Source of the DNA: a virus
Direction: 5' to 3' (one strand)
Length of the DNA: 64,000 nt
Virus record (IMG/VR): IMGVR_UViG_3300025117_000042
Coordinates: 39,541 to 103,540 of that record
A program made the position numbers and the translations under genes. Positions 3 to 63,975 of the stretch are shown here, piece by piece. Each line of letters begins with the position of its first letter. The stretch's first letter is position 1. The notes under the pieces were generated by a model, which saw only the letters and a list, made by a program, of their open reading frames with translations, made no database searches and was not told the DNA's origin.

Positions 3-980
3 ATAGACACTAGAAACTTAACAGCTTTTATTAGGAACAATGCAGCAGGTAATGCTGACTTGTACGATCATTTTAAACTACAAGCTCCTACTACAGGTGG
101 TCGTAACCCTGTGCCTTTGGCTACTTCTCCAGATACCAACGATGCAGGAGATGGTGGTTCTGTTGCCGGTGTCACAGTAGCTTTCGGAGCTGCACAGGCT
201 GATATTGACGGTGATGGTAGCAATGAGAATTACGATGTAACTATCGACGGTAACAGTAATACCTGTGCTGATGTGTACAAGTATCTTAAATATATTACAA
301 GAAGAGAAAATACTAGTGCAGTAGGTACAGGAACTACGACCGAAGGTAGATTTTACCTTGCTGCTGATGGTGCTTACGCTGAAGTTAAAGCTGCTCCTTT
401 CGGGACATTTGCTGGCGGAAAATTCTTTGGTGCCAGGGGTATTTTGGTAACAAATGTTAGTGATCCAAATAACAGAGTTCTAATAGATGCAAGTAACACC
501 ACTCGTACTCCTCCGGTGCAGATGACAGTAACTGTATCTGCTGTACAATCTGGCGACAGGGTTCTAGTAGCTCGTTCTTCGGCTGGAACTATAAATAAAT
601 CACAGTTTACAATAGCTTCGCGTACAACTACTACTGTCACAGTAAATGAGGTAGTGGGATCTGATATTTCAACAACTGGAGTGCTACGTGTAGGTGATGA
701 TCGTTATACTTATTCTGGTTTGAACAGAGGCACCAAAACATTTTCTGGAATGACAGCTGTTTCTGAGTATGCCGGAGGTACTGCCTGTTATGTACCTCTA
801 ATAGATGACGTAGCTTCAGGAACTTCGATATCTAGTTCAGCTATAACGTATGTTTCTGACTTTGATGTAATAGCTAGGGTCAGAAAAAAATCAATACTTC
901 CATTCGAGAACACTGGAACAGTAACTTCCGCAGGTTTGACTGTTGCTGCTATTAGAACAGCTGATACTATCGTACAGTAA
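3..980 (+). CDS. Virion accessory/structural protein, 5'-truncated (frame open from position 3)
   Basis: The frame is open upstream of the track's TTG start. The protein is Thr/Ser/Gly/Val-rich and beta-strand-like, and lies upstream of the neck genes. Confidence 0.6.
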   Translation: MDTRNLTAFIRNNAAGNADLYDHFKLQAPTTGGRNPVPLATSPDTNDAGDGGSVAGVTVAFGAAQADIDGDGSNENYDVTIDGNSNTCADVYKYLKYITRRENTSAVGTGTTTEGRFYLAADGAYAEVKAAPFGTFAGGKFFGARGILVTNVSDPNNRVLIDASNTTRTPPVQMTVTVSAVQSGDRVLVARSSAGTINKSQFTIASRTTTTVTVNEVVGSDISTTGVLRVGDDRYTYSGLNRGTKTFSGMTAVSEYAGGTACYVPLIDDVASGTSISSSAITYVSDFDVIARVRKKSILPFENTGTVTSAGLTVAAIRTADTIVQ

Positions 981-991
981 GGGGTTATGTA

Positions 992-1582: not shown

Positions 1583-1583
1583 C

Positions 1584-1766
1584 ATGCATAAAAAAGAATT
1601 GGATAAAAACAGGAAAGTATACAGTTCAGATTCCTCAGCAGAATCATTTGATTATAGGTTGTATGGAGAGGGTTCTGAAAGGCAGACTGTTACTATTTTG
1701 GATATGATAGTTAGAAATCTCACCCTGAAAATTATATCTAATATGCTACTTGGAAAGAAGAAATGA
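1584..1766 (+). CDS. Hypothetical protein
   Basis: Tightly packed ORF coupled to the next gene by an ATGA overlap. Confidence 0.4.
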   Translation: MHKKELDKNRKVYSSDSSAESFDYRLYGEGSERQTVTILDMIVRNLTLKIISNMLLGKKK

Positions 1767-2280: not shown

Positions 2281-2284
2281 TAGT

Positions 2285-3493: not shown

Positions 3494-3501
3494 GGTGACA
3501 A

Positions 3502-13057: not shown

Positions 13058-13962
13058 TGCAAGCATTCATAGCAAGAGTAGTCAGTAACGATGAATATCC
13101 TGATGAAGACTGTATCGACGTAGTATTTATCAGGGAATCAATGATGAAAGCTAAGGTTCATGTATTACATGATCGAGCTAATCCTTTGTATGGCAGGAGT
13201 GGGTACTTACCAGACGTAGGAGAGACAGGCATTGTTATCAGAGTGTCTGACTTTGGTGATACCTACTACTGGCTAGGTAGTTTCCATGATCCTTGTGATA
13301 ATATATGTACCAAGAATACTTTTGAAGTAGGTAGAGACTTGTACCATCATCAATCAGATGTTTGGCATCAGATACTGAAGGATGGCACAGTTGAATTCTC
13401 ACATCCCTCTGGTACATTCATAAAACTTGGTTCAGGCACTACGCTGAATAGCAGGACTAGGTTTCAGAAATTGCCTAAATTGTACAATCAGAAAGCAGAA
13501 AACCCATATCCGAACAGGGGCGAAACTCCTGTAGCTCTGACTATCAACCATACTTGGCTGAACGGTGGAGCTAGTCAGCAAACATATGCAATAGACAAAC
13601 GTAAACAGCACCATACTGGTGATATTAAAACTACAAAACTTATATTAGATGCTTTCGGTGGCATCACGCTTGACCATGAGACAGCAACCGGAACTCACAT
13701 GACGCTGACCATAGATAATGCTGGCAACGTTGCTGCCTGTGCTCCTACATTCAATTTCTCCGGTATAGGTGGACAAACAGCTGTAACTATCAACGGTACG
13801 CTGCATACAACTAATAATATACTCTGTGATACTAACATAAAGGCTGTAGCTGAAGTGTATGATATGAACGGATCACAACCTACTTTCTGTATGTCTGGAA
13901 TGAGAGCCGTTTATAACCTACATCAACATGCTGATTCACCGCCACCTTCGCCTTCAATGTAG
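13057..13962 (+). CDS. Baseplate central spike (gpV/gp5-like)
   Basis: N-terminal OB-fold LP.VGE.G.V; beta-helix repeats; terminal YNLHQH (HxH metal-binding tip). Confidence 0.8.
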   Translation: MQAFIARVVSNDEYPDEDCIDVVFIRESMMKAKVHVLHDRANPLYGRSGYLPDVGETGIVIRVSDFGDTYYWLGSFHDPCDNICTKNTFEVGRDLYHHQSDVWHQILKDGTVEFSHPSGTFIKLGSGTTLNSRTRFQKLPKLYNQKAENPYPNRGETPVALTINHTWLNGGASQQTYAIDKRKQHHTGDIKTTKLILDAFGGITLDHETATGTHMTLTIDNAGNVAACAPTFNFSGIGGQTAVTINGTLHTTNNILCDTNIKAVAEVYDMNGSQPTFCMSGMRAVYNLHQHADSPPPSPSM

Positions 13963-14008
13963 ATGATTCACAGGAATTGAGTTAATATCAATAAAGAGGG
14001 TTTATATT

Positions 14009-15103
14009 ATGGCTGGTTCTCAGGCTAAACAAACAATCACGTTCATGGTTACTGATTCTGGTGGATCACCTATGGGAAGCTGGGATTCACGCATTTCCGC
14101 ATCCAGTAAACCCTCATACACTTTTAATATAAATCCTACCGATCTAATCAGAAATCAGCCGATGCGTAGCGAGGTCACTCCTAGTATCTGTTTTGACGCA
14201 GATACAAGCCCTACAGGTCTTGTTCAAACTTGGGGTGAGGGGTTGCCTACCTGGACTATCCGAGGGCATACAGGGTACAGCCAAGGCGCACAGGGGGTCG
14301 ATGGCTTTCAAGCTTATGTTGCGCTGTATCAAATGTTCGAAGCTTACGCAAAGCAGAACGTTCTTCTATTAAAAGATAACAAGCCACCTTGCCAGATGAT
14401 CTTTATCAATTGGGCAGACACGTTTCAGGATTGGTGGTTCGTGGAGCCTACTAAGATCCCCGATAAGATACGTTCCTGCGATAGGCCATTGTATTATTTC
14501 TATGATATAAACCTTGTCGGTGTGAAGCCTTACGCTAATGTTATGAAGGTAACAGACGCCATTTCGACTACAGTAAATAGGCCGGATATCCGCTTGCCGA
14601 AAGTCGCAGCATCTATCAAAGCACAGAAGGAATCTCTTGATGCTTTCGGAGACAAGATGTATGCCAGTTCCCTGGAAGCAGGAGGGCTGAACTCATACAT
14701 AGGGTCTATTATAAATCCAAATTCGATCACTGATTTCCCGACAAAGATCAGAAACGCTTACGCTGATATCAAAGACAGAGTTGAACAGATTCTGTATAAA
14801 AACACAATCTTTACTAATATACAGAAGGCTGTGTACATAGCTCAGACCACTATCAATGTAATAAACAACGCAATCAATGACATAAAGACAACTGTAAAGA
14901 CTGTACTGTCTCCTCTGTACGGTCTTGTTAACGTCTATAAGCAGCTTAAATGTGCACTTATGACTTTAATCACGCTTCCGATTGACTTGGTATCTTCTTC
15001 TATTAACAGTATTAAACAGCTTATTGCTAGTCTCAAGGCAAGCGGTTGTGGTACTACCATCACCTCTGACAATACTAAAATTGGTTTTAACTCAATCAAG
15101 TAA
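14009..15103 (+). CDS. Baseplate/tube initiator protein (putative)
   Basis: F.INP...I.G.TG and PL.Y.Y.I.L pattern; synteny. Confidence 0.55.
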   Translation: MAGSQAKQTITFMVTDSGGSPMGSWDSRISASSKPSYTFNINPTDLIRNQPMRSEVTPSICFDADTSPTGLVQTWGEGLPTWTIRGHTGYSQGAQGVDGFQAYVALYQMFEAYAKQNVLLLKDNKPPCQMIFINWADTFQDWWFVEPTKIPDKIRSCDRPLYYFYDINLVGVKPYANVMKVTDAISTTVNRPDIRLPKVAASIKAQKESLDAFGDKMYASSLEAGGLNSYIGSIINPNSITDFPTKIRNAYADIKDRVEQILYKNTIFTNIQKAVYIAQTTINVINNAINDIKTTVKTVLSPLYGLVNVYKQLKCALMTLITLPIDLVSSSINSIKQLIASLKASGCGTTITSDNTKIGFNSIK

Positions 15104-15118
15104 CGAGGAATATATACT

Positions 15119-15778
15119 GTGATAAAGAAGTACATTATACAAGAGAATGACACACTCAGGGATATAGCAAAGAGATTCTATGCCAATCCCAATATGTGGG
15201 TAAAGCTGGCAATAGATAACAATCTTGAGTATCCTTATGTCGGCAGAATCGGGGAAGGATACAATGGCAAGGTGCTGTATCCTGGTGATAGTATCATGCT
15301 CTCTTTCACCAACGATGAGAGTGAGAGCATTTACTTCACTGAAAGAAACGTAAGCAATATCAATTACCTGGATATGCTGATGGGTACTGATATAGGCTTG
15401 GTGAACGGTCAACTTGCATTGGTAGGGGGTAATGAAGGTTTTGACTTCTACACTGTCAAAGGATCATTCAATATAAAACAAGCAATCCAGCATAAATTCA
15501 AAGTTATAAAGGGTGGACTATTCTATTATCCTGATTACGGAACCAAACTGCCAACTTACATAGGCAATATCACTGATATGGATGCAATAGAAATGGTAAA
15601 AGCTGAGGCAGCTCGTACCATACTGGAGGATCTTAGGGTAGAGTCTTTGTCTTCTATTCAAGCTGAGTATGATGGACATGATTCTATTACAATATCGGCA
15701 GGATTACAGCTGGTGGGTAACTTTGTAACATCAATTGCTATTAAAATAGATGGTCAGAACTCAGTAATAATCCAATAG
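15119..15778 (+). CDS. LysM + gp25/W-like baseplate wedge (sheath initiator)
   Basis: N-terminal LysM (YII.E.DTL..IA..FY...W..LA..N.L). C-terminal gp25 motif (N..QAI...GG.FYYPDYG...D.RV). Confidence 0.8.
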   Translation: MIKKYIIQENDTLRDIAKRFYANPNMWVKLAIDNNLEYPYVGRIGEGYNGKVLYPGDSIMLSFTNDESESIYFTERNVSNINYLDMLMGTDIGLVNGQLALVGGNEGFDFYTVKGSFNIKQAIQHKFKVIKGGLFYYPDYGTKLPTYIGNITDMDAIEMVKAEAARTILEDLRVESLSSIQAEYDGHDSITISAGLQLVGNFVTSIAIKIDGQNSVIIQ

Positions 15779-15787
15779 GGAGTTAAC

Positions 15788-16894
15788 ATGGCGAACTTTG
15801 AAATAAAAGACTTTGAACTGCTGAAAGCAAGTCTATTAAACTATATTTTTTATTCAGACAACTCTCTCACTGACTTCAACGTAGGGGCGGTTATGCGCTG
15901 CTTGCTTGAGGCAGTAGCTCAGGAGGAGGAAGAAACCTACTTCAGGCTCTGGCAAGGGGTACAAAAAGCTATTCAAGAATCTATCCTGTTCGCATTCAAT
16001 TTTGTACCAACACAGGGTACATATGCATCAGGTATGGTGACATTCGGAAGGGACAACGCAGCTTCCACAGATATAGTCATTCCAGCTGGAACTGTTGTAG
16101 CATCTGCTGCCGGTAACACATATAAGACTCTGGCTGATGCAACAATCGCACTAGGCACCTACTCAATAGATGCTACTGTAATTGCCACAACCTATGGATC
16201 AGCTTACAACATTTTCTCACCAAACACTGTACTCAATATTACAAAACCTATGTATGGTGTCAGTTGGGCCAAAACAGCTTCCACCATAGCTGGAGGTACT
16301 GATACAGAGAGCCAATCATCGTTGTTCTATCGGTTCACTCAATACATTGATTCATTGTCCAGGGGAACTATAGCCGCTATACAGTACGGGGCATCTCTGG
16401 CTGAGCTGGTAGATGCCGGTGGCAACACCACTGAGCGGGTCATCAGGGTAAAAGCATATGACTTCCCTAATAACCTGGGATATGTGGACTGCTACATCGA
16501 CAACGGATCAGGCACAGCTTCCGGTGGTCTGGTTACTAGAGCACAACAGATAATAGATGGATATACAAACAGTGATGGTATACTGGTTGAAGGTTATAAA
16601 GCAGCTGGAGTTAAAGTAGTAGTGTCACCGGTTCAGCCTGTTGCAATAGATATGGTGTTGACATTAAGTGCAGATGATTTCTATGGTGTTAAGCCCTATG
16701 TAGAGTCTGCTGTGAGTTATTACTTTTCAAAATTGGATATAGGACAGCCTGTTAACTATGAAAAGCTGATAGCTGATACGTTCTATTCAAACTCTGGTGT
16801 AAAAGATATTACAATATCCACACCGAATGCTGACATTTCTATTGGAACACATGAAATTGCGATACTTGGGACTTTAACGATAGTAGCTGCCTAA
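15788..16894 (+). CDS. Baseplate J-like wedge protein
   Basis: TDFNVGAVMR, IPAGT.V, GGTDTES, LSRGT..AI and YKAAGV motifs. Confidence 0.9.
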   Translation: MANFEIKDFELLKASLLNYIFYSDNSLTDFNVGAVMRCLLEAVAQEEEETYFRLWQGVQKAIQESILFAFNFVPTQGTYASGMVTFGRDNAASTDIVIPAGTVVASAAGNTYKTLADATIALGTYSIDATVIATTYGSAYNIFSPNTVLNITKPMYGVSWAKTASTIAGGTDTESQSSLFYRFTQYIDSLSRGTIAAIQYGASLAELVDAGGNTTERVIRVKAYDFPNNLGYVDCYIDNGSGTASGGLVTRAQQIIDGYTNSDGILVEGYKAAGVKVVVSPVQPVAIDMVLTLSADDFYGVKPYVESAVSYYFSKLDIGQPVNYEKLIADTFYSNSGVKDITISTPNADISIGTHEIAILGTLTIVAA

Positions 16895-16909: not shown

Positions 16910-19900
16910 ATGGCTGTATACACACTTCCGATCAACAGGAATAGTACTTGGCAGGGTAATGCAGGGGTTAAGAATGACATTCCCTCAAGAACCACTATCT
17001 ATACCACTGTAAGCCCTTCCAATGACACTTCAGGGGCTACTGACTTTACTAATATAAACACAGCTCTAGCTAACTGCCCACAGAATCAAGTGGTTAAACT
17101 TGCTGCTGGTACGTTCTACACCAATGCTTTTATCAAAGTACCGAGTAATAAAACTCTACGTGGCAACGGGATGGGATCTACTGTATTGCGAGGTGTTGGT
17201 GGTAGCAATATTACGGCTATTGTAGGTTTTGATGGTGGGATGTATCAGGATGCAAACGGTATTAACGTTACTTCAGGTTACACAAAAGGTTCCACTCAAA
17301 TTGTAACTGCTACAGCTACTGGCTGGGCTGTTGGAGATATATTTCTATTAGATGAAATAATGGATGCCGGAGGCGATCCTCCTGTAACTAATACCGGGAG
17401 CAACGGAACGGCTACCTGGAACGCAAGAGATGGAAACCGATGCTTAGGGCAAGTAAACTCAGTAGCTGCTATTAACGGTAATACTATTACTTTGGATGTT
17501 CCTTTACACTGGAACTTTAGCACATCCAGGGTGCCACAGGTTATCAGGTACAACGCTCCAGTAAAATTAGCGGGTATAGAAGCTTTGACGGTAGATAATG
17601 CTGCTGATGCTACCAAACATGAAACAGGTGATCCTGCTAATATAAGTTTACTTGGGTGCTCTAACTGTTGGTGTTTAAACGTAGAATCCAAAAACATCTA
17701 TCAGTGTCACTTTAGGCTCAGGAGGAACTTTAGAACTACTATCAGAGGATGCGCTTTCTATGGGCATCTTGTTAGTGCTTCTAATAGATATGGAGTATGG
17801 CTTGGGCCAGCTGGATCTTGTCTGGTAGAAAACTGTATATCTTATCAGCTGTCTCCTGCTATCACAATGGCCTATGCTATTATGGGCAATGTAATTGGTT
17901 ATAACTGGCTGCACTGGATGGATGGGGAATCTTCCGGTTGGGCTGCAAACTGTATCAGTATCCACGGCGGTCACTGTGCATTTAATCTAATAGAAGGTAA
18001 CATTATTGAAGGTAGGATATCTGCTGATAACGTATGGGGAAGCGGAAGTCATACTGTATACCTTCGTAATAGAGTGTATCTTGATAGCAGAAGATTTCAA
18101 ACAGGTAACTGCGGAGCTTTTGACCTTGAGTTCCAGTATAACAGTCTGTATTACTCAACAATAGGTAATGTCATAGGGCAAGGTTCTGAGGGTTATGTTC
18201 TATTAAATGGGGTAGACATAATTGAAGGCTCAAGAAGTATCTATCGTACTGGTTACGTTTATGATAGTGATAACGGTGCTTCTGGAAATAACCCCAATGT
18301 ATTCACTACACTACTACGACATGGTGATTGGAATATAAAAGACAACGCTGTAATCTGGAATGGTGTTGATTCACATGAGCTTCCAGTTTCACTGTATCTT
18401 ACCGCCAAACCTGCATGGATGGGATCTGCAATATCATTTCCTTCAATTGGGCCTGATGTTACTCCAATGTATCCTACTCCTCCTACTGACAACACTATAT
18501 TTCCATTTACATCTTCAGGAGGTGGTGGTTCTCTACTAAATCTTTATGTTGCTACAACAGGAAGTGATACAGCCGGGAATGGATCAAGCTCTTCACCTTA
18601 TGCATCTCTGTCTAAGGCATGCTCAGTGGCTACAGCTGGTTATACAATCAATGTAGCTGCCGGAAATTATACTGATTACTCTCGTTGTAATATAGTTCCA
18701 GGTGTAAACGTTGTTGGAGCTGGTAAACAGAGTACTATTATAAACTGTCGTGTTGGAACTTCTTCTGACAGTTATTATTTCAATGCCAGAACAAGTGGCT
18801 CTTTAGGACATAACATCTCAGGTATTACCTTCATGGGCGGGACAAGTATAAGCAGCAGATCTTGTTCGGCTGTAGGTAGTTTCTGGAAGCGCAACAACGT
18901 TATATTACATGACTGTGACTTTAAGTACTTTTCAGGCACCAACACAGGCTTCTGTCTTGAGTTCCTGGGTGCTGCATCCTGGTCTGGTGAGGTCAGTGAT
19001 ACCTCTCCTCCTACTATGTGGCAGAGCGGCTGTCAGGTTTATAACTGTAGTTTCATAGGATGTGACTATGCTTCACAGTATACTGCCGCTTTCCGTGGTA
19101 GTGCTCTGAAGGACATGGTAGTTCATGACTGTATCTTTGATGAACGTGGTACAGGTGGTTACGGCATGAAACTGTCTAATCCTGGCTGGCTTAACAACTG
19201 TAAGTTCTATAATAACCAACATTTTGTTGATCCCTTTGGTGGTAGAGATGAGTCATTAAACATAGAATTGTGGAACCTTGTAAATAACTCTGAGATGTAT
19301 GGTTGCCAGTTTACTAACGGTTATATTTCCTTGGTTCGTGGGCAGCTTCTTGGTGGAACAAGATCTTTCTATGTTCATGACAACATACTTACCGATATGA
19401 TTGCCAATGAGTTTGCTGTACCTGAGATGACTGTATATAAAAATATTATCAAAGGGTATGGAACTACATCTAACTACGATAACTGTTCAGGCTTAAGAGT
19501 ATGGAGTCCTTATCCAGCTGTAACATACTTCAGTAACATGATCTTTTGTTACAACCAGTTTTATGATGGTCACACCGGTTCTCCTGCTATAGGATTTACT
19601 AACAACAATGGATCTGTAACTTGTGTTAATGCGCTTATATTCAATAATACATTTAATAATACAGGCCCAGCCTTCGATAACTCTATCTCAAGCTTACAGA
19701 ATTTAAAGTTTTGTAATAATATAGTTACAAGTTGCGCTGGTGGTGTCAACAACAGGGGAGGGCTTGCTGGTGTTGATGTACATAATAACTGCTTTAACTC
19801 TAATAGCTATAACTGGAATCTTGCTGGAGCTTCTGGTCAGAGTATTGTAGCCAATTTAGTGAGTGTAAGTCCTCTGTACGTGGATGCTACAAACAAAAAC

Positions 19901-35387: not shown

Positions 35388-36566
35388 ATGCAATGTGAAT
35401 TCTCAGAAAGCTGTAGTCTGCATGGTTCCTGTAACAGCCCTAAGATCAGAATTGAAGGAAAGGTAAACCCTGATGTGCTGATCATTAGCGACTGCCCACA
35501 TGCTGAGGATGATAATTGTAACAGCGTCCTGGTAGGTGAAGGTGGGGAGCTGTTACGTGAAGCTTTGAGGGGCAATGGTTTTAATCTTAGCAAAGTAGCT
35601 TATACGTTTGTGGTGAAATGTAGACCTACGCAACAGAAGTGGGGTAAGATCGTAAATCGTGATCCTTCAGACAAGGAAGTAAAAACGTGTAAGCCTTTTG
35701 TATTAGCAGAGATAGAGGTATTCAAGCCAAAGATCATCCTCCTACTAGGCTCTGTAGCGTTCAAGGCTGTATTAGATGGTAAGGGGATCATGGCTAACCG
35801 GGGAAGGCTGTTTGAATACAACGGTATCCCGGTCATTCCGACCCTTCACCCTGATATGGTTATTAGAGATGATACACATCTAAATCCTTTCGTTAAAGAT
35901 ATCGAAACCCTGTGGAAGTTCTTCACCGGCACTATGCCAGTAGAGGAAAAGCCTACTGATTATATTCTCTGTGACACCAAACAAAAACTAGATGATCTAA
36001 TAGACTATGCTTCAGATAAAGATGAGTCAGCAGTTGACTTAGAAACATCTACTCTCAACATGTTTAAGGATGATTCACAGATCGTATGCTGTAGTTTTTC
36101 CTTCTTCGAATATGAAGCTCACATAATACCTTTGTATAATAAACAACAAATTTTTACCGGCAAGATGTTGAATTACGCAAAAGCGGTGTTAAAGATATTA
36201 TGTGAGTCTGAAATTAGGAAGATCCTTCAAAATGGTAAGTTCGATATCAAGTACCTGGAAGTGACGGAAGGTATTCTATTAAACAACATGGTTTCAGATA
36301 TCATGATGAAGTCCTACCTGTTCAATGAAGAGGCTAAAACACATGCTCTGGATTATCTGGTGTGGCAGTATGTGCCGGAAATGGGGAGCTATTGGGATGG
36401 TCTGGAGCAGTACAAGGCAGAGCACAAGGATTGTGATCCTGAGCAAGGCGGGACGTACAGGAATATTCCTTGGAAAGTAATGATACCTTATGTTGGAGCA
36501 GATACTGATGCTACTATTAGAATAGATCATCGGCTGAATGATTTACTGAAAGGAAAACAACCATGA
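35388..36566 (+). CDS. DNA polymerase N-terminal subunit: family-4 UDG-like domain + 3'-5' exonuclease
   Basis: Fe-S cysteines, VKCRP and TLHP (UDG-4); ExoI DLETS, ExoII QNGKFD, ExoIII Y..AD.D. Confidence 0.85.
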   Translation: MQCEFSESCSLHGSCNSPKIRIEGKVNPDVLIISDCPHAEDDNCNSVLVGEGGELLREALRGNGFNLSKVAYTFVVKCRPTQQKWGKIVNRDPSDKEVKTCKPFVLAEIEVFKPKIILLLGSVAFKAVLDGKGIMANRGRLFEYNGIPVIPTLHPDMVIRDDTHLNPFVKDIETLWKFFTGTMPVEEKPTDYILCDTKQKLDDLIDYASDKDESAVDLETSTLNMFKDDSQIVCCSFSFFEYEAHIIPLYNKQQIFTGKMLNYAKAVLKILCESEIRKILQNGKFDIKYLEVTEGILLNNMVSDIMMKSYLFNEEAKTHALDYLVWQYVPEMGSYWDGLEQYKAEHKDCDPEQGGTYRNIPWKVMIPYVGADTDATIRIDHRLNDLLKGKQP

Positions 36567-36982
36567 AGATCTACATTGCATCTTGTAACCAAAACGTAGC
36601 AAGATCAGTTGCAGATTGTCTATTAAAAGAAGGTGGGTTTGAGATAGTGTCTACCTGGATCTATAAGGAGTTTAGCCGTACAGCAGATCTTACTGTTGAG
36701 GAACGGATTGAGATAGCTACCAGGGACACCAAGGAAGTATGCAGCGCCGATGCTTTGGTATTGTGTAGCGGGATACAACACTTTGCTGGCGGGAAGCATG
36801 TAGAAGCTGGCATAGCTATCGGTAGAGGCATTCCAGTTATAATATATGGTCATATAGAAAACATGCTTTATTGGAATCCAGATGTAGAGTGTTACAGTAA
36901 TATGGGCGAAGTACTACTGAGTCTAATAGCAAAGAAGCATGCGAAATATGATTATGTCTCTGAACACTTCACAAGAGGGTAA
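36563..36982 (+). CDS. Nucleoside 2-deoxyribosyltransferase/DNPH1-like N-glycosidase
   Basis: KIYIAS...D...V..AD.LV...GG.HVE.G.A...G.PV pattern. Confidence 0.7.
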   Translation: MKIYIASCNQNVARSVADCLLKEGGFEIVSTWIYKEFSRTADLTVEERIEIATRDTKEVCSADALVLCSGIQHFAGGKHVEAGIAIGRGIPVIIYGHIENMLYWNPDVECYSNMGEVLLSLIAKKHAKYDYVSEHFTRG

Positions 36983-37001
36983 AAGAGAGGAGTTATTGTC
37001 T

Positions 37002-37541
37002 ATGATTGTGCTTGTCGATATGGATGGAATTGTAGCTAAGTTAGAAGAACCTTGGCTAGCTTTGTATAACAAAGATTATGATGACTGTCTTGTGTCAGAG
37101 GATATGACTGATTTCGATTGGTCGAAGATAGTAAAGCCTGAATGTGGCACTAAGATCTTCAGTTATTTAGCTACAGAAGGCTTATTTCTTAACTGTGAGC
37201 CTTACGAAAACTCAGTTGATGCTTTATTACAACTATATTTAGACAAGCACGAACTGTATTTTGTAACAAAAGCTCATAATCTGGCAAAGTTTGCCGTTAT
37301 AGAGAAGATGGATTGGGTTGACAAGCACTTTCCGTTCATAGGTCGAGATAAAGTTATTTGTACAGGTTATAAGCACTTGATTCGTGGAGATGTTTTAATA
37401 GATGACTACCACAAAAACTTCCGTGGTTTTCAGGGTAAGAAGCTCCTGTTTGATCGTCCCTGGAATAGGAGTGCTTGCGAGATTGATCTGGTGAGAGTTT
37501 ACACCTGGGATCATGTACTTTATGAAATAGAGAATATGTAA
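37002..37541 (+). CDS. 5'(3')-deoxyribonucleotidase (HAD, NT5C-like)
   Basis: VDMDGIV, K..WV..HFPF, LIDD and F..PWN motifs; ATG 37002 with AGGAG SD. Confidence 0.88.
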   Translation: MIVLVDMDGIVAKLEEPWLALYNKDYDDCLVSEDMTDFDWSKIVKPECGTKIFSYLATEGLFLNCEPYENSVDALLQLYLDKHELYFVTKAHNLAKFAVIEKMDWVDKHFPFIGRDKVICTGYKHLIRGDVLIDDYHKNFRGFQGKKLLFDRPWNRSACEIDLVRVYTWDHVLYEIENM

Positions 37542-38902
37542 TGCTTGACGGTGTGTTTCCTTCACAAAATAGTTTCTCAGAGGTAAACGATCATCTGTTT
37601 ATCCCTGCACTGTACGCTCTTAAAGAGGTAGAGAAGCAGGGATTTACTATTGATATGAATAAGTTTCTCTGTTTAGAGGAAGGTTACACAGTAAAGCTGA
37701 ATCAACTGGAGGATAGAGTCAGGAGCTATCCTGAAGTATTGAGTGTAGAAAAGAAGATAGACAAGAAGTTTAACCTTAATTCAGGGGATCAGATACATGA
37801 GCTGTTCTTTGTAGAGATGGGTCTATCTCCTGAAGGTATAGAACCGACAGATAGCGGTAAACGGTTAAGCACTGGTAAGAAGACCATAGCAAAGCTGAAA
37901 GATAAGCATGAGATAGTAGAGCTTATCAATCAGCATAAGAAGTACGCCACACTGTATAAGATGTTCGTTAAGCCATTGAGGAAGCACATTTGTCTTGATG
38001 GCAGGGTACATTGTGTCTATCTCCCTCTTACAAAGACAGGGAGGCTTATCTGTTTCGATCCAAACCTTCAGCAGATACCAAAGAACATAAAAGCTGCTGA
38101 CATAGGTTTCGACTTCGATCCTGCTCTGAACATAAAAACTATGTATATTCCATTCGATAAAGATTATTTATTGATGGAAGCTGACTATAGCCAGATGGAG
38201 CTTAGAATCCTTGCAGCCTATTGCCAGGATGAGGTGATGAAGGGGATCTTACTGCGGGGAGAGGATATTCACTTAGCTACAGGTCAGGCTATGGCCGATA
38301 TCGTGGAGCCTGGGGTTATTGTAGACAAGGACAGCAAATGGAGGAAAGCAGCAAAGACAATCAACTTTGGTATTATATATGGCGAGGGTGACAAGGCTCT
38401 AGCCGAGGCTCTGCATGTAACAGAGAAGGAAGCAAAACAGTTTAAGCGTAACTACTTCGATAGCATGCCTGGGGTTGAAACCTTCCTTGATGATGTATAC
38501 AATTTCGTATACGAAAATAGGTATGTTACTACAATGTTTGGGAATTACCGGAGGTTGTTGGGGGTAACATCTCCTCAGAAGTTTGTCAGGTTTGAGGCAC
38601 TGCGGCAAGCTTTGAACATGCCGATCCAAGGTACAGCAGGGCAGTACACTATCTGTGCTATTATAAACATCATTGATATTATACGTAAGTACAAGATGAA
38701 GTCTCGTATAATAGCAACAATTCACGACTCCATTATGTTTTGTGTACATAAAGATGAGATAAAACAAATGGCAGAGATAGCTCAGACAGTTATGGCGAAT
38801 CCTACTAACCCATTGATTTATTGGGATCTAGGTGTACCACTGAAAGCAGATTTGAAGTTGAGTGAAAATAGTTGGGCGGATCTGAAAGATTTTACACCGT
38901 AA
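37541..38902 (+). CDS. polA: DNA polymerase family A, polymerase-domain subunit
   Basis: TKTGRL...PNLQQIP; motif A DYSQMELR; motif B RKAAKTINFGIIYG; motif C IHDS. Confidence 0.93.
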   Translation: MLDGVFPSQNSFSEVNDHLFIPALYALKEVEKQGFTIDMNKFLCLEEGYTVKLNQLEDRVRSYPEVLSVEKKIDKKFNLNSGDQIHELFFVEMGLSPEGIEPTDSGKRLSTGKKTIAKLKDKHEIVELINQHKKYATLYKMFVKPLRKHICLDGRVHCVYLPLTKTGRLICFDPNLQQIPKNIKAADIGFDFDPALNIKTMYIPFDKDYLLMEADYSQMELRILAAYCQDEVMKGILLRGEDIHLATGQAMADIVEPGVIVDKDSKWRKAAKTINFGIIYGEGDKALAEALHVTEKEAKQFKRNYFDSMPGVETFLDDVYNFVYENRYVTTMFGNYRRLLGVTSPQKFVRFEALRQALNMPIQGTAGQYTICAIINIIDIIRKYKMKSRIIATIHDSIMFCVHKDEIKQMAEIAQTVMANPTNPLIYWDLGVPLKADLKLSENSWADLKDFTP

Positions 38903-41235: not shown

Positions 41236-42354
41236 ATGGCAGTGAGAAAAAGCAAGGGAGCAGATCCAGTAGATGATCTAATAGATTCAGCGGTTAAAGC
41301 AGTACAAGGCAAGTTCGGTAAGGAGTCAGTAACAAGGCTTAACAATAGTTCCGATCTGGCTACTATCAAGAGCCATACCAGTTTTGGTCATTGGGGGCTG
41401 GATCGTATTACTGGTGGTGGTGCTCCTGCTGGTAGGTTGGTAGAGCTGTACGGTGCTAACTCAGTAGGGAAGAGCTTTCTAATAGATGCTCTGCTTGCCA
41501 ACTGTCAAGCTCAAGGTGGGATAGCTATATTAGATGACATGGAACATGCCTATGATCGTTTCTTCGGTGAGATTGCTGGTGTAGACAACGATAGGTTGAT
41601 ATACATGGCATCTGAAACTGTTGAGGAGTTTTGGGATCGGATGGAGTGTACTTTGGTTAGTATATTAACAAAGAATCCCAATGCATACATTCTGTACGCT
41701 GGAGACAGTATCGCTCAGGTTCCCTCCAAAGAAGAGAAGAATACCGATCTGGATGATGTAGGTGGATTCAGGACTGAGAAAGCTACAGCCATTACTATAG
41801 GAGCCAGGAAGACCACTAGCTTGATAGGCAAGCACAATGTAGCCTTAGTGATAGTGAATCAGCTGAAACATAAGGTAGGAGTTATGTTTGGCTCTGATGA
41901 GTATTGCGCTGGTGGTGATGCTTTAGGTTTTTGGGCATCTATTAGACTCCGCTTGTCTATTATAGACATGATCCGTGGCAACTTTGATGATGAGGACATG
42001 ACAGCTGCGGAGGAGCTTGAAGAGGATAAGAAGAAGGATAAGAAGAAAGGTGCTCCGAAGAAGGATAGCCCGATCATCGGTGTGCGTGGCAAGGCAATAG
42101 CCAAAAAGAATAAGATAGTGAAACCGTTCCAAGAAACGGAGTTCGATCTGTACTTTGATAAGGGGCTTGACTATACCAGCGGCTGCTTTGATCTACTACG
42201 TAAAGACGGCATAGTATCACCTGGATGTAACAAGGATGGAGAGATGACAAAAGGCTGGTATCTGTACGATGGCGCTAACTGGCGAAAGAAAGAGCTGGAG
42301 CAGCACTTTAGAGAACATCCAGACCTGTTGAAACAATACTCTAATCTGAGGTGA
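41236..42354 (+). CDS. recA: RecA/UvsX recombinase
   Basis: LD...GGG.P.GR.VELYG..S.GKS, D.EHA.D, DS.A, NQL, GG.AL.F.AS.RL and KNK..PF motifs. Confidence 0.95.
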   Translation: MAVRKSKGADPVDDLIDSAVKAVQGKFGKESVTRLNNSSDLATIKSHTSFGHWGLDRITGGGAPAGRLVELYGANSVGKSFLIDALLANCQAQGGIAILDDMEHAYDRFFGEIAGVDNDRLIYMASETVEEFWDRMECTLVSILTKNPNAYILYAGDSIAQVPSKEEKNTDLDDVGGFRTEKATAITIGARKTTSLIGKHNVALVIVNQLKHKVGVMFGSDEYCAGGDALGFWASIRLRLSIIDMIRGNFDDEDMTAAEELEEDKKKDKKKGAPKKDSPIIGVRGKAIAKKNKIVKPFQETEFDLYFDKGLDYTSGCFDLLRKDGIVSPGCNKDGEMTKGWYLYDGANWRKKELEQHFREHPDLLKQYSNLR

Positions 42355-43857: not shown

Positions 43858-44199
43858 ATGGCTAAAACTTCTGTGAAGTCCGAAGATCGTACACGCAAAG
43901 TCAGTAACGCACGTATCTATGAGGATGGAGAAATGATAGCTGTAATGGATGGAACAGTAGAAGAAGTAGAGAAGATGGCTCAGAGGTTCCGCAACAGCTC
44001 AAAGCGTAAAGGTGCTGTTGTAGCTCTTAAGTATGAAGGTAAGAAGGTAGAGTTCACTGAAGTAAAATCATTGTCAAAAGAACATAATCCTGACTATGCA
44101 ATAGAAGCAAACGGTGAATGGTTTAATGATAGGGCAAGGCACAATCCCAAAAAGAAAAAAGTAGTTGCGCCTACACTTCCTGTCAGAAAGGCGAAATGA
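43858..44199 (+). CDS. Basic hypothetical protein ending in PVRKAK
   Basis: SD present; ATGA coupling to the next gene. Confidence 0.6.
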   Translation: MAKTSVKSEDRTRKVSNARIYEDGEMIAVMDGTVEEVEKMAQRFRNSSKRKGAVVALKYEGKKVEFTEVKSLSKEHNPDYAIEANGEWFNDRARHNPKKKKVVAPTLPVRKAK

Positions 44200-48824: not shown

Positions 48825-49369
48825 TGAAAAAAGGTGGTGGCAGTCTTAAAGGGGGGGCTTTTGAGCGTCAAACTGCAAAGACCTTATCTTTATGGCTCAG
48901 TAACGGTTCTGATAAGGATTTGCTGTGGAGAACGGCATCCTCTGGAGGTAGAGCATCTACTGGCAAGGCAACAACGGGGTTTGGGGATCTTGGTATAGAT
49001 AAGGATCATCCTGATGCCAGGAGGTTCCTCAAGCTGTTTTGTGTCGAGTGTAAGAACTACAAAACAGTATCTATTACAAAAGCCTTCTTCAACGAGAAGA
49101 ACGATCTGTGGAAGTGGTGGGATCAGGCTGTTACACAGGCTAAAGGCGCAGGTTGTTGTCCTATGCTAATAGCTAAAGGTGACAGGCAACCTACGCTGTT
49201 GATATTACCGACAGAGCTTACTTATCTAATAACTAAGATAAAGTTCTGCATGTTTACTGATTCAACTTTGCAAAGCAGTGTGATAGCTGTAGACTTTAAC
49301 GAGTTCCTGGTTACACATACATGGAAGGATGTTTATAATACAATGAAGTCATTTGGAGGTGTCAAGTGA
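48824..49369 (+). CDS. Holliday junction resolvase (PD-(D/E)XK)
   Basis: KG..FER..A..LS.W, R..SGG, GD, VECK and WW.QA motifs. Confidence 0.85.
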   Translation: MKKGGGSLKGGAFERQTAKTLSLWLSNGSDKDLLWRTASSGGRASTGKATTGFGDLGIDKDHPDARRFLKLFCVECKNYKTVSITKAFFNEKNDLWKWWDQAVTQAKGAGCCPMLIAKGDRQPTLLILPTELTYLITKIKFCMFTDSTLQSSVIAVDFNEFLVTHTWKDVYNTMKSFGGVK

Positions 49370-49719
49370 GGAAGTTTGAGACAGGAGCAACACGTAATAG
49401 TGATACAAGCAAGTTTGACTACGAGGGCTTTCTGTCACCAGCTGTGTTAGAGAGGTTCGGTGCTTATATGCACAAGCATCGTACACAAGCTGATGGTAAT
49501 TTCAGGGACTCTGACAACTGGCAAAAGGGAATGCCGAAGACACAGTATATGAAGTCTCTCATAAGGCATACTATTGACTTGTGGAGAGCACATAGAGGTT
49601 ATATTGTAATAGACAAGGACTCAGGTGAACGTGTTACAAAGGAAGAGTTGCTTTGTGCTATTATCTTTAACGCTCAAGGTTATCTGTTTGAGATGCTACG
49701 TAAACGGAAAAGACAATGA
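49366..49719 (+). CDS. dATP/dGTP diphosphohydrolase-like (DUF5664) protein
   Basis: RKFETGA.R, NWQKG.P, SL.RH and A..FN motifs. Confidence 0.75.
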   Translation: MRKFETGATRNSDTSKFDYEGFLSPAVLERFGAYMHKHRTQADGNFRDSDNWQKGMPKTQYMKSLIRHTIDLWRAHRGYIVIDKDSGERVTKEELLCAIIFNAQGYLFEMLRKRKRQ

Positions 49720-55460: not shown

Positions 55461-56144
55461 ATGAAGGAATATCATAAGATACAGACCATCTATAAGAGGG
55501 ATATGTTCTCGAAAGAAAAACATATATTAGAGGGTCAGTGGTCTTTGCCTGAATTCGAGTTCTTGCAAAATAATATATGGGAGTTCACTGAAAAGGTGGA
55601 TGGCACCAATATTCGTGTAATGCCTACAGAAACAACAGTATTATTTGGTGGGAAGACCGATAACGCACAGATACCCGCACCTCTGGCTAATCGGTTGAAT
55701 GAGCGGTTTTTACCTTTGCATGAGCGTATGGTGGATTTGTTTAGGGATAATATAGGTTCAGTGTGCTTATATGGCGAAGGGTATGGAGCCAAGATTCAGA
55801 AAGGTGGAGGGAACTACCGGCAAGATCAGGATTTCGTGTTGTTTGATATTAGAATAGGTGAATGGTGGCTGCAACGTAATGATGTGGAGAATGTAGCTGC
55901 TACTCTTGGATTGGAGATTGTACCTGTAATAGGGTACGGTACGCTTCACGATGCTATTAGAACAGTTAAGAATGGTTTGTTATCAATGTGGGGGATTTTC
56001 AGGGCTGAAGGGATCGTCGCAAGACCGAAGGTGGAGCTTAAAGCCAGGAGTGGTCAGAGGATTATTACCAAGATCAAGTGTTGTGATTTTGACTTGGGAA
56101 GGGGAGACTATGGAAGCGATCAGGTATCTGGAAAAGGTAATTGA
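55461..56144 (+). CDS. RNA ligase (Rnl2-like nucleotidyltransferase)
   Basis: Y.KI, motif I EKVDGTN, III YGE, IIIa F.LFDI, IV EGIV, V KIK. Confidence 0.88.
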   Translation: MKEYHKIQTIYKRDMFSKEKHILEGQWSLPEFEFLQNNIWEFTEKVDGTNIRVMPTETTVLFGGKTDNAQIPAPLANRLNERFLPLHERMVDLFRDNIGSVCLYGEGYGAKIQKGGGNYRQDQDFVLFDIRIGEWWLQRNDVENVAATLGLEIVPVIGYGTLHDAIRTVKNGLLSMWGIFRAEGIVARPKVELKARSGQRIITKIKCCDFDLGRGDYGSDQVSGKGN

Positions 56145-59100: not shown

Positions 59101-62100
59101 GGATATGCTTAGATTAAGTGAGGGGGAGGGGCATGTTATAATATACAGAGAGTCGAATTGGGAGGATGACATTCATTCTGTCTATATCAATACCCTGGAT
59201 GATGCTATTAGACTAAAGGAATCGTTGCAGAAGCTGATATTCAGGCTACAGCAGAGAGATAAATGATGATTTACACAAGGTATATATTAGCATTTCTGCT
59301 TGCAGTTGTAGGTGGCATAGCTGTATATGTTACGCTCAGAGTGAAAGATTTTAAGTTCAATAATAAACTGTTCAATGTTTCTTTTAGGATTGATGCAGAT
59401 GGTTATATGTACTCCAACAAGAATGTACATCCTTTGGGGTTAATGTTCTTCATTTCGTATTACTATATTAAAAAACAGTTAAGAGGTAGAAATAATGGCT
59501 AATAAAAGAGTGATATGTAGTAGATCTGCTGAGTGTACTGTGGCTGGGGTTGTTGATTGCTTACACTTGGGGGAGCACTATCATGCATCAGCTTGTAGTA
59601 GTCCCTACTGTGATATTTTGGAGAAGCCCTGCAAGTGTCATAATATAACAACAAAGAAGGGACAAGCAGTATTGAGTGATATAAATAATCAGGGAATGCA
59701 AGATCCAGTTGAAGCAGCTGTAGTGCAGGTTCTGGAGACTCAAGCTGAGTTCGATCAAGCTCTGTACAATATGGTTCAGCGTATGAAGGCAAAGCGGATT
59801 GTGAGCCTGATAAAAGCCCTGCATGCTGAGGTTGTTATTAATAAAAAAGGTGGGAACAAAGTCAAATGGATGGCAGACGAGCTGAAAGAGCTATTAGCTG
59901 TTTGCAGGGTGGAAGATTACATAAACGAGGTGGATTTATGACAAAACGGGTATTAGCTTCAAGTAGGCTTACAAGTTATTTCAATGAAGACGAGCATAAA
60001 ACAAAAACGGTAACGGTGCTGTTCTGGTCTGATGGATCAGTTACCTGGATAGAGGAATAGTATGCATAAAAATGCTGTAGATTATGATCTGGCAAGGGGT
60101 GTTGATAACAGGTTTGGATCTAAATCGGGTTTGCCACGTGACCCTAAAGATTACGTCCCTGAAAATCGACCTTGTGATTGGTGCGGAGGGATAGTGAAAA
60201 AAGGGTATATACATAATGAGTGTTTGGGTAAGGAAGCTGATTCGTGGCTGGATATTTTGTATTAGATAGGTTGACATGTACAAAAACGGTGATAATCTAT
60301 TATAAGAGGGTAACACAAGGAGCCTAATATGCCAAATCATGGCCTGGATTGTGGATGCACGTATGCAGATTTGGAGCCAGTAGCAATGATTGAGAGCGGA
60401 GTATATACGTTTATATGCAGGAAACATGGGATTGTATATTATACACGTAACCCTCAGTCTATATTGAATGCAGGTAAGACATGGCTGGACAGCCTAGCTC
60501 ACAGCTGCTGAAAGGGGAAATGATGGAATTTGCAACCTGGGAAGAGGCACTTGATCTATTAGAACGTAACTATGCGGGGGATGAGCTTACCGACGAGGAG
60601 CGGGATTTCCTGCATTACGGCTGTCCTCTTTGCAAGTGTGAGGATGAGTCATTGCCTAAATCAAAAGCAGTAGAAGCTCCAGATGAGACTTGTGCAAGGT
60701 GTCTTTGGTTGCTGTTCGAAGGCAAGGGCTGCAATGATGATATGACCTATTTTCGAAGAGTATGTATTAGAGAAGATCCCCTGGATTTTGTTGATGATGC
60801 AGAAGAGGCTCTGGAGCGGATTCACAGATGGCAAGGTTTGTTGAAAGAACTTAGATCGAAATAGGGGGATATAAGCTATGAGTGATGCATTGAATCAGTT
60901 GCTCCTGGGAGCTGCCTGTGGTGCTGGTGCTTACCTGATATTCTTGTTTATTATAGTAATCCCGGTAATCAAATTCAAAGCTTACTTGGAAAGGAGCAAA
61001 AGATGAAAAAGGTAGTCTTTCAAATTGAGGAGTCTGTAGTAGAGGCTGACGAGCTTACAGAGCATGATCTGGTAATATGTAACGATGATGTAGAGCGGGA
61101 ATACGGCATCCTGGGAGTGAACGCTAAGAAGTATGTATTTTGGGCTCCTTATACAGAATCTGTGATACATCAATCTGAAGAAGGGGAGACTCTATTAGAC
61201 TTCCTGAAAGCTGTACATAAGTCTGATGCCAACGTAGAGCTTTTGTACTTCAGCTCTGGTCGGGAGCTGGTAGATTGGTTGATAGAAAGGGGATGATCGG
61301 ATGTTACGCTATGCCGACATGAATTCCAAAGATCCAATATGGGTAGTACGTAGAGCGGAGTTTACCCTTTATGCTTGTCCATACTGTTGGAACACTAGGA
61401 TCAGACCACACCATCAATGTTGTTTAAGATGTGGTGGCTTTCTACGCTGGCATGAAGTACCGGATGAGGATGGTTGTATATTTGAAAGGAGCTATTAGAG
61501 TGAAAACGAGATGTGTTTTGACTGATAGTTGTAGTATCACTGAATGTAGTCACTATGGTTTACATGAATATACTTTAGGTTGTGACTCAGATTGTGGGAA
61601 TAGGGGTCGCCCTAAAGATGGTGTAGGTGTTTGTCAAAAGGAATTAACAAAAGCTGAAGAAGCTCCACCGTTGGGTATTATACCTAGAAAGCTATGGCAA
61701 GAGCAACGTATGGTTGAGCTATCTAACTCTATTCAACGGTATCTAATAGCCAATAAATACTCTGATTGTCTATTAGAGTGGATAGACGAGCTAGGTGATA
61801 TGGTAAGGGAAAGGGCTAAACATGAAAGTCACAGCTGAGCAAAAGAAAAGAGTGTTTGAACCAATCAAGATAGAGATTGTAATAGAAGATGAGTTTGAGC
61901 TTAACAAGCTTAATCAGGAGTATGATACATTGCAGAAATATGTTCCTGGTATACTGCTGCCGAGGGATAGTATAAACTCAGATTCTAACTTGAGTCTTAT
62001 ATTGCATAGAGTCATGCAAGCTGTAAAGTTTGTTAATAAACAAAACACTGAGAGGTAATCTATGAACAATGGCGAGTGGGATAGTGAAGTACTAGGCAAT

Positions 62101-63975
62101 CCGATGACTGAATGTATCTGTGGTCATGTTAGATCTGAGCATGGCTATATCCTGGGGGCGAAAGGTAAAGGTAAGTGTACTCAGTTCCACTGTCATTGTA
62201 ATAGATTTATAGCGAAAGGAAAAAACCATGAGCACAAGTTTGAACCTGTGTAAGGTGATTGAGGAATATAACGACGATAATGGTGAGCTGATAAAGATCA
62301 GTAAGAGTATTACGGCAATAAGACAGCTAATAGAAATCTATGAGTGGAACAAAGGATCTACTGACGATAAGGAAGGCGAAGACTGTTTTGTACAGATAGT
62401 TTGTCCGTTGTGCAGCGTTGATAATAGATGCCGTTGTTGTCCTGCTCAGGCATTTATCATTTCCTCTTACGATGTGCCATATAGTTGTATTGCGAAAGAA
62501 GAAAGGTATCACTCTGTAGAGGCTTGTAGGGATCGGATTGACGAGCTTGTTATATTATACAACCTTTACCTTGTGGCAGGGATTATGCAGGGTGATCTAT
62601 TGTGCGAGGTGTAACCATGTTTACTGTAGACGCAGTAATAGTCTGGTTCGGCAAGCTTTTTTATAAGGAGAAGAGGACTTACAAGGTTTTCGGGTATACA
62701 TACCTTGTGAGGGAAGTAATTTTCGAGGTGGAGCGTTATGAAAAAGTATAGTGCTCTAATGCTGTGCTGCTGTGAGTCGTGTTTGCGCTATGAGATAGAT
62801 CGAATGTTAGGGCATTTGTATGGTCACTATATCCCATTCGGTCAACCTGTGTATGAAGTAATAGAAACTTCGTGCTGTACTGTAACTTTCATGCTGGAGT
62901 CTAGCAGATTACGAGGGCTGAGGTTCGATGCTGTAACAACTTGCGGTAACTGTACTGAGAAAGCTATGGATATAGCTGCTACGCTAAGGAGATAAACAAT
63001 GATATTATACTTTATAACGCTGATAGCCTGGGCATGGATAGTTATAGCTCTCATGTCCTTTTACTTGATCGTACAACACAATATGAAGTGGGAGCTTTTC
63101 CCGTTGAGACAGCTTAAGCTTGCACCAAATAAGCTGTTTGCATTCATACTGTCAGTACTTTGGCTTGTTGTCTATTACACATATTAAGGGGTACACAATG
63201 ACAGAGATTGAAGTTTACCAGTGGATCGCAAATTTGGATCTGGAAGGGGATGCAGGATGTTATGAGTGTAGAGCCTTACAGAAGAGGGTTCTAGCATTTG
63301 GGTTGAGCGAGGTAGCCAAGTACACAGGCTCTATCTGTGTAGGGGTGTTGGATATGCAGCTTAAGCTTGCTGAGGTAGAGAAAGTTAGGAATGTTACTAT
63401 CAGGTATGCGAATTTAAGCATTGATGGGGATAGAGTGGTAGGGAGGACTATCGGATGCTGGCAATGTGCTATGTATCAGGTTTTGGATGAGCAAGCTTTG
63501 CAAGATTATATTAAACAACTTGAAGAGGATCTTGCACAAGCCAGGATACTAAATCATACAGTGTTCGGAGCAAGGAGAGCCTTGGAGCATGGGTATGGTA
63601 TCACCAGGAGCGGTCATGCTTATCCTTTGGGAGGTATGCATGTCTGTACTGAACCAGACTGTCCTGCAAGGGTAGAGGGGGAGCTGAATAATGGATGATA
63701 AGCTGAGATTCTACTACAAGATGAGCGAGGAGCGGTACAACGAGATATTCAAGAAAAAGGAACCGACTACAGATGAGCTGTTGGAGCGGTTTAAGCGGGG
63801 AGAGCGTATACATACAAAGCATTCCTTGCACTCCGAAGAGAGGACCGATCTGAATTGTGTTCATCAGGGAAACTGGCGTTGCATCCTCTGTGACGGAGAT
63901 GAAGATGTAATAGAATGTTTTTTCTGTGGTAAACAGCTGTTGGTACGTTGTAACTTCGATGATGAATATGCATAG
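56110..63975 (+). CDS. Accessory region of ~30 small ORFs, many Cys-rich or single-TM
   Basis: Consecutive + strand ORFs of 40-200 aa with SDs; no recognisable families. Confidence 0.5.
58168..58473 (+). CDS. Cys-rich protein, paralog A
   Basis: WE.ALDLLERNY...CPLC...C..CLW...EG..C...ALERI.RW. Confidence 0.7.
   Translation: MMIKIESWEQALDLLERNYDPKGYLKKEEQDYLQRYCPLCNMTDRVAEHHGCGDCLWWKYEGSECPDGYTTIRMFPGSFPEKAQKALERIKRWRENLKREK
60271..60298 (+). promoter_or_regulatory. Sigma70-type promoter (putative)
   Basis: TTGACA-16-TAATCT with TGn, in an intergenic gap. Confidence 0.45.
60520..60864 (+). CDS. Cys-rich protein, paralog B
   Basis: Same motif string as 58168-58473. Confidence 0.7.
   Translation: MMEFATWEEALDLLERNYAGDELTDEERDFLHYGCPLCKCEDESLPKSKAVEAPDETCARCLWLLFEGKGCNDDMTYFRRVCIREDPLDFVDDAEEALERIHRWQGLLKELRSK

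Follow-up and report, generated by a model that had tools for sequence, protein, structure and literature searches.

The window analysed here comprises 64,000 nucleotides (bases 39541-103540) of the IMG/VR virus record IMGVR_UViG_3300025117_000042, a genome of 103,540 bp referred to below as G000, and the element in question is an array of short dyad-symmetric DNA words scattered along it. Within the window, the array T-N-TAWTA-N-A extends from position 291 to 63914 and is strand-symmetric, with 147 copies of TNTAWTANA (mean spacing ~430 bp), 267 of the wider form KNTAWTANM, 66 of CTAWTAG, and 28 of TCTAWTAGA. It carries on beyond the window, through the 39.5 kb that precede it in the genome. 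The first TCTAWTAGA lies at 479..487, and the other copies start at 797, 2518, 3816, 4500, 4844, 8693, 10679, 12956, 17344, 17780, 17986, 24114, 27002, 33112, 33657, 35996, 40832, 41277, 41478, 41938, 46303, 48500, 56546, 57676, 60555, 61191, and 61769. The copy at 17344..17352, inside an 1882-aa gene, ends a stretch without CTAWTAG (13-17.3 kb); that at 41277..41285 lies at the start of a RecA-like gene, in which five of 10 permissive places (defined below) are occupied; and that at 61769..61777 is 27 bp from the CTAWTAG at 61743, one of the rare close pairs. Nearly all genes of G000 are on the plus strand, plus-strand open reading frames (ORFs) alone making up 95% of the genome, and 91% of the sites are intragenic.

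The original prediction had described an over-represented quasi-palindrome, CTAWTAG, in at least 65 copies. An exact count gave 66 (35 CTAATAG and 31 CTATTAG) and confirmed all 29 positions it had listed, with about 13 copies expected (dinucleotide shuffles of the window, 12.9 ± 3.8, maximum 21). The feature is genome-wide, with 98 copies of CTAWTAG in the whole 103.5-kb genome. Under Markov models of orders 0-3, the excess was 4.5-10-fold, and 4.5-5.5-fold for the 7-mer core. The 98 copies compare with 20 expected from synonymous-codon shuffling (z 18), 43 from third-base swaps preserving dinucleotides (z 12), and 15 from codon permutation (z 25). A synonymous shuffle that never created any of 63 words purged from this genome (see below) and never added CTAG gave 25 (z ~17 by our arithmetic). 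The enrichment also persisted under a codon-pair (dicodon) Markov model, the comparison on which the original prediction had staked its claim, which expected 54 copies (z 6.4); for the longer forms, the same model expected 9.2 copies of TCTAWTAGA against 39 observed (z 10) and 100 of TNTAWTANA against 242 observed (z 16). An order-5 Markov model absorbed the CTAWTAG excess, but only in a circular way, since the motif's 5- and 6-base sub-words carry an enrichment of their own.

Enrichment climbed with word length, from 1.5-fold through 2.5-3-fold and 5-6-fold to 20-30-fold at nine bases, and the most enriched 7-mers were TCTAWTA (136 copies) and TAWTAGA (156 copies). Genome-wide, the 39 copies of TCTAWTAGA compare with 1.8-2.4 expected, a 16-21-fold excess that lies beyond the at least 15-fold mark of HIP1-type palindromes. 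Synonymous shuffling expected 70 copies of TNTAWTANA (z 30) and, against 423 observed, 160 of KNTAWTANM (z 31). The original prediction had read the use of different frames as a sign of selection on DNA. Two reading frames are indeed used in genes, in addition to the intergenic sites, and the third would bring an in-frame stop. With the excess also surviving the protein-preserving and dicodon nulls, these results demonstrate that selection for the word acts on DNA, not protein.

The 7-bp word first reported is real as a core, but the true unit is 9 bp long. This unit is the dyad K-N-TAWTA-N-M, with TCTAWTAGA as its optimum. In a substitution scan, the central TAWTA was obligatory, any change bringing the observed/expected ratio (O/E) to 1 or less. 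At positions 1/9, T/A (21-fold) was preferred over G/C (10-fold), A/T (3-fold), and C/G (0.7-fold); positions 2/8 accepted every base but favoured C/G, the order at position 2, measured against the synonymous shuffle, being C (5.0-fold), G (3.1-fold), T (2.9-fold), and A (2.5-fold). TATATTA and TAATATA, which also rank high among the k-mers, represent this motif with A in the second position. The TAWTA excess falls wholly within the outer T...A frame, and cores without this frame numbered 150 against 175 expected. Spacing variants with a 0- or 2-base centre were depleted (TNTATANA, 37 vs 60 expected; TNTAWWTANA, 5 vs 12).

The two halves of the dyad act in synergy. By our arithmetic from the counts, sites with both flanks good were enriched 3.5-fold compared with 1.5-fold for one good flank alone, and TCTAWTAGA reached 16-fold compared with ~7-fold expected from independent halves. 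Counts on the two strands were similar (TCTAATA 66 vs TATTAGA 65; TCTATTA 70 vs TAATAGA 91). That the word is about as common as its reverse complement despite the co-oriented genes indicates selection on double-stranded DNA, and strand symmetry together with half-site synergy argues against RNA, translation or single-strand reading and for a dimer on duplex DNA. The same observations speak against a Chi-like recombination site, which the original prediction had listed among its options: the polarity of Chi or KOPS is lacking, and the full dyad is favoured.

The sole close relative of G000 that we found is IMGVR_UViG_3300025073_000032 (G001; 102.8 kb), whose TerL is 89% identical. Of G000, 61% aligns with this genome at ~72% nucleotide identity. 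Third codon positions are merely 51% identical, so synonymous sites are largely randomised between the two genomes, yet both keep the site density. G001 has the same top words and the same grammar, with 27 copies of TCTAWTAGA vs ~1.8 expected. Conservation in relatives, proposed earlier as a check, was borne out: 40 of 138 site positions (29%) were shared between G000 and G001, compared with 9-14% (13-19.5 sites) for matched words (p 5e-6). The sites are thus weakly held in place and mostly turn over.

Contigs carrying a TerL 44-51% identical to that of G000 (11 kb in all) contained no sites, with ~26 expected at the G000 density; the contigs of the TerL relatives at 61% and 49% identity (P0003 and P0007) lay outside this comparison. 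For relatives at 41-51% identity, a metagenome scan yielded short contigs only. Equal enrichment in unrelated phages, against which the original prediction had guarded, was not seen, O/E being scattered around 1 in 54 unrelated phage loci. In five prokaryote genomes, perfect sites numbered ~8 per Mb, below the count of the reversed control word, compared with 377 per Mb in G000. These comparisons show that the array is specific to the G000/G001 lineage, not something that phage or cellular DNA has in general. A distant relative's contig holds six copies of another palindrome, TGTCGACA, within 340 bp (L104:3797-4141). We considered these as a dispersed array and rejected that reading, as they form one local cluster that looks like an operator, origin or pac cluster.

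Within G000, counts per 4-kb bin fitted a uniform rate (chi-square ~26 on 25 degrees of freedom, summed by hand), as did counts per gene (chi-square 149 on 169 degrees of freedom). Sites occurred in every gene class, and the rate was flat along the genome and along genes. It had been stated that the motif is densest at 56-62 kb and missing at about 13-17.3 kb; both statements are literally true of the 7-mer but reflect noise, and the supposedly empty stretch holds eight TNTAWTANA sites, at 13161-15832. Intergenic density was approximately twice the coding density (4.1 vs 2.2 per kb). Gaps between sites were more even than Poisson (three shorter than 30 bp vs 16 expected; 115 of 200-500 bp vs 76 expected; coefficient of variation [CV] 0.88-0.93).

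We then scored permissive places, that is, places where synonymous codons permit the word. For the word in general, 218 of 551 such places (40%) were occupied, and for the perfect 9-mer 38 of 70 (54%); occupancy for three control words was 4-9%. Occupancy depended on the distance to the nearest other site. In G000 it was 11% below 30 bp, 22% at 30-60 bp, and 46% beyond 60 bp, and the corresponding values in G001 were 7%, 12%, and 34%. This neighbour effect was significant in both genomes (Fisher p 2e-4 at 30-60 bp and 3e-9 below 60 bp in G000; 0.005 and 5e-5 in G001). Such neighbour-dependent occupancy cannot be made by repair or mutation bias working site by site, but can arise from diminishing returns or steric exclusion between bound units. 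In the major capsid gene (genome 26810-28228), none of eight permissive places was occupied, which may reflect the cost of rare-looking codons in a highly expressed gene.

The genome is also marked by what it lacks. Sixty-three five- or six-base words, each with at least eight copies expected, are absent from G000, as are ~27 of the 64 six-base palindromes. The purged palindromes include TCTAGA (0 vs 42 expected), AGCGCT (0 vs 40), CTGCAG (0 vs 44), and ATCGAT (0 vs 39). GAGCTC, GGATCC, GGTACC, CCTAGG, CCTNAGG, and GGTNACC are missing too, and the pairs GAGATC/GATCTC, GACATC/GATGTC, and TCTGGG/CCCAGA, as well as GGWCC, are, like the last two of these, absent or nearly so. CTAG occurs 137 times vs 504 expected. 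G001 shows the same purging. Judged from sequence, this suggests unmodified DNA that would face many type II systems. We rejected the array as a by-product of such avoidance, as a shuffle respecting it expected only 70 sites compared with the 242 present. When 1-5 bases were placed between the half-sites of other purged palindromes, no general 'expanded site' effect emerged. Six-frame searches of G000 gave no match to N6/N4, Dam-type or C5 DNA methyltransferases and no thymidylate-synthase homologue. With no methyltransferase family found and the outer positions graded, the array lacks the cognate methyltransferase and the strict specificity of a type II restriction-modification site.

The G000 record further lists a tail sheath, a tail lysin with a transglycosylase domain, a portal, an SU10-type capsid protein, TerL, a DnaB-type helicase, a DnaG-like primase, PolA, a UDG-exonuclease fusion, a RecA-like protein, a gp32-like protein, a 5'-3' exonuclease, and an SbcCD-like nuclease. 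Upstream of the window, between the portal and head genes, lies a gene for a 334-aa S-adenosylmethionine lyase domain protein (genome 23119-24123; L022:3119-4123; PF23780, 35 bits, above the cut-off). DNA polymerase I is encoded in two parts (window 35388-38902): the 3'-5' exonuclease, fused to a UDG-like domain, at 35388-36566, and the polymerase domain at 37541-38902; ORFs between the two parts gave a weak nucleoside 2-deoxyribosyltransferase-like match and a deoxypyrimidine 5'-nucleotidase (NT5C). A Thg1-like tRNA-His guanylyltransferase (L021:2548-3237), an RlaP-type nucleotidyltransferase (L021:5871-6827), and an RNA ligase (window 55461-56144) form a possible RNA-repair set. At window 49366-49719, there is a weak, below-cut-off match to the N-terminal domain of dATP/dGTP diphosphohydrolase (PF18909), a family linked to phages with altered purines. 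Across the genome, Ile is encoded most often by ATA (45%) and Arg mainly by AGA/AGG.

With 20 kb of the window as query, megablast found no match among GenBank phages, and no cultured relative exceeded 29% identity by TerL. G000 DNA also occurs in groundwater and soil metagenomes. The murein-degrading domains suggest that the host is a bacterium. Among cellular genomes, the closest TerL relatives were archaeal proviruses at 36-38% identity (Methanoperedens and Archaeoglobales assemblies), followed by candidate-phyla prophages at ~25%; these matches are too distant for the host to be named from them. The likeness to the Methanoperedens and Archaeoglobales TerL contrasts with the bacterial-type replication genes and murein hydrolases of G000.

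The word and the lineage are new, and the feature belongs in kind with highly iterated palindromes and dispersed dyad arrays. We found no paper using TCTAWTAGA or CTAWTAG as a biological motif. The best published analogy is HIP1, as the original prediction had supposed. HIP1 (GCGATCGC) is a highly iterated palindrome of cyanobacterial chromosomes which is 15-300-fold over-represented, has a density periodicity of 10-90 kb and is of unknown function, with a role in chromosome structure suspected (Xu, Lawrence & Durand 2018, PMC5861425). Both are short, perfect, strongly over-represented palindromes that occur in genes as well as between them and in more than one frame, are better conserved than control words and have no peptide, RNA or gene-regulation role. 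The differences are also clear. The G000 word has only A/T at its fixed positions and is carried by a virus of 103 kb instead of a cellular chromosome; it shows graded degeneracy at its outer positions, and at short range one site excludes another. The HIP1 word, GCGATCGC or a GATC-centred alternate, comes with a cognate methyltransferase, whereas neither a methylation site nor a methyltransferase was found in G000. The density in G000 is flat at 4-kb resolution over 103.5 kb, a length too small for the periodicity of HIP1.

The closest published phage case is the repeat of Cluster O mycobacteriophages, a 17-bp dyad, TGTTCGG-N3-CCGAACA, in ~34 invariant copies, at least 14 of 34 lying between genes (Cresawn et al. 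2015, PMC4351075). Both arrays consist of dyad words scattered genome-wide, within and between genes, common to one phage cluster and with the binding protein unknown. In place of tens of near-invariant 13-17-bp copies, G000 has 240-420 copies of a graded 9-bp word, 91% of them intragenic and at ~10 times the density.

A sister motif is present in the cultured Vibrio phage SSP002 (JQ692107), where TTASTAA occurs 300 times in 76 kb vs ~13 expected. The copies are spaced more regularly than a Poisson process would give (CV 0.83), the genome lacks 24 six-base palindromes, and its annotated genes are all on one strand. The skeleton xTA-N-TAx and the genome style are shared with G000, a suggestive likeness; the centre is S instead of W, the flanks differ, and short-range exclusion is not evident (46 gaps below 50 bp vs 53 expected). 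The two phages have no proteins in common beyond generic replication ones. We found no paper mentioning TTASTAA in a phage, including SSP002; the word was known only as the yeast Yap1 site.

ParB/KorB/Noc-type sites and the stoperators of Cluster A mycobacteriophages are 13-16 bp long, are present in 10-70 copies and are accompanied by an identifiable ParB or repressor gene; the stoperators are asymmetric and oriented with transcription. They resemble the G000 array in placing many copies of one protein-binding word along a replicon, some of them intragenic, for one reader protein. The G000 word is instead symmetric, and we rejected a ParB, Cro/CI or ribbon-helix-helix operator set as far as the family searches (see below) tell.

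Taken together, the ~240-420 copies of K-N-TAWTA-N-M are putative docking sites for a two-fold-symmetric protein that binds duplex DNA. That the array is a dispersed docking site for such a protein, acting on the whole chromosome, is the reading we favour, at slightly better than an even chance on the sequence evidence; the dispersed binding site of the original prediction thus remains the best account. A protein dimer would read each site, and each bound unit would serve or occupy roughly 60 bp on either side. The role would be chromosome-wide, in marking, compacting, packaging or shielding phage DNA, instead of single-gene control, because the sites are equally dense in early, replication, and structural genes and from one end of a gene to the other. 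Such a binder would prefer the TCTAATAGA duplex over a duplex changed in TAWTA. By analogy, a 9-bp odd palindrome, shorter than typical helix-turn-helix operators, would have the size read by restriction-type enzymes or coiled-coil basic-region dimers. The Yap1 site TTASTAA, a basic leucine zipper (bZIP) site, serves here as an analogy only. As the word is rare in the sampled cellular genomes and confined to this lineage, we lean modestly towards a reader encoded by the phage and not the host. We considered one candidate reader, a 113-aa basic ORFan (window 43858-44199). It is 84% identical in G001 and otherwise without relatives among 5.8 billion proteins, so that only the two motif-bearing genomes have it; any link with the motif would be conjectural, and its fold prediction (pLDDT 51) was not used. 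No test here tied the TerS, 34081 or 26787 proteins, which had been put forward earlier, to the motif.

Several observations weigh against a docking array. Between G000 and G001, 71% of sites are not at the same position, and lost sites had no visible replacement nearby; this positional turnover without local replacement implies that selection per site is weak. Among the genomes compared, only these two carry the array, and in G001 the raw gap statistics show the spacing effect only as a trend. Six-frame searches of G000 for ParB_N, RHH_1, and HTH_3 families gave no match, and Pfam and PHROG scans of ~70 ORFs yielded no reader candidate. The reader may also be encoded by the host, or the same word may occur in the host genome.

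The even spacing of ~200-500 bp and the redundancy of near neighbours would also suit a replication or recombination site acting in cis on both strands, such as a start site of the phage DnaG-type primase or an entry point or hot-spot for recombination-dependent replication, kept every few hundred bp so that no stretch of lagging-strand template would be without one. The phage has genes for DnaB, a DnaG-like primase, PolA, RecA-like and gp32-like proteins, and SbcCD, and each strand of the word offers 5'-NTA-3'. CTA and TTA are start triplets of some bacterial DnaG primases. Primases, however, read single strands and need only ~3 bases, whereas here seven of nine positions matter and the halves reinforce each other as a dyad, which points to duplex recognition by a dimer; TCTA alone is not the enriched unit, and the excess grows with length up to nine. 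We therefore regard this explanation as unlikely. A DNA-modification target, for a host enzyme or an unrecognised phage gene and with copies kept because modification benefits the phage, for example as a self-mark, appears improbable. A short odd-length palindrome with a W centre has the typical shape of a type II site, and HIP1 embeds a methylated site (PMC6604393). On the other side, the proposal of a modification site drew no support from the searches for three methyltransferase families and for thymidylate-synthase-like enzymes, the phage encodes the S-adenosylmethionine lyase domain protein, the 63 purged words suggest unprotected DNA, and the graded, degenerate outer positions do not match the strictness with which modification enzymes choose their sites.

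Turnover of most sites while density is kept is also what would be expected of a neutral process, in which biased mismatch repair or mutation turns near-matches into the word without any function, and one-mismatch variants of the core are somewhat rare (~12 vs 21 expected, by our sum over positions 3-5). A site-by-site bias is blind to neighbours, however, yet in both genomes occupancy drops 2-4-fold where another site lies within 60 bp. Sites are moreover conserved 2-3 times above matched words, and the capsid gene leaves all its permissive places empty. We know of no repair bias that yields a 16-25-fold excess of a 9-mer, and consider a neutral origin quite improbable. An artefact of translation or composition, whether hidden stops catching frameshifted ribosomes, codon or codon-pair usage, or a side effect of restriction purging, is very improbable indeed. 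The word does hold out-of-frame TAA/TAG, which the original prediction had offered as an alternative cause; the order-5 model absorbs the 7-mer; and CTAG and TCTAGA are strongly avoided. We rejected the hidden-stop reading all the same. Outer-stop content does not track enrichment: G and T at position 2 give 3.1- and 2.9-fold, variants without outer stops are still enriched 2.5-3-fold, and TTTAWTAAA, with stops on both strands, occurs once vs 2.3 expected. T1 and A9 matter although they lie outside any stop codon, the counts are strand-symmetric despite the co-oriented genes, and the excess survives synonymous, dicodon, and avoidance-preserving nulls.

This is a real feature, under strong selection and specific to one lineage: selection rewrites approximately half of the available synonymous positions to hold one 9-base word. 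If the array is a docking site as we propose, it would imply a genome-wide DNA-protein interaction that is explained by no annotation of G000. More tentatively, and with considerable doubt, some virulent phages with co-oriented genes and purged restriction-type words might share an undescribed tag for their own unmodified DNA, a hyper-abundant odd palindrome xTA-N-TAx, with TNTAWTANA as its form in G000 and TTASTAA in SSP002, read by a family of small symmetric DNA-binding proteins, for discriminating phage from host DNA or organising packaging. The hyper-abundant palindromes of cyanobacteria have stood as an unsolved problem for more than 20 years, and a small phage genome with the same behaviour would make the question directly testable, as would the cultured SSP002 with its sister motif. 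Codon-usage models, host prediction, and synthetic phage recoding would misread or destroy such sites.

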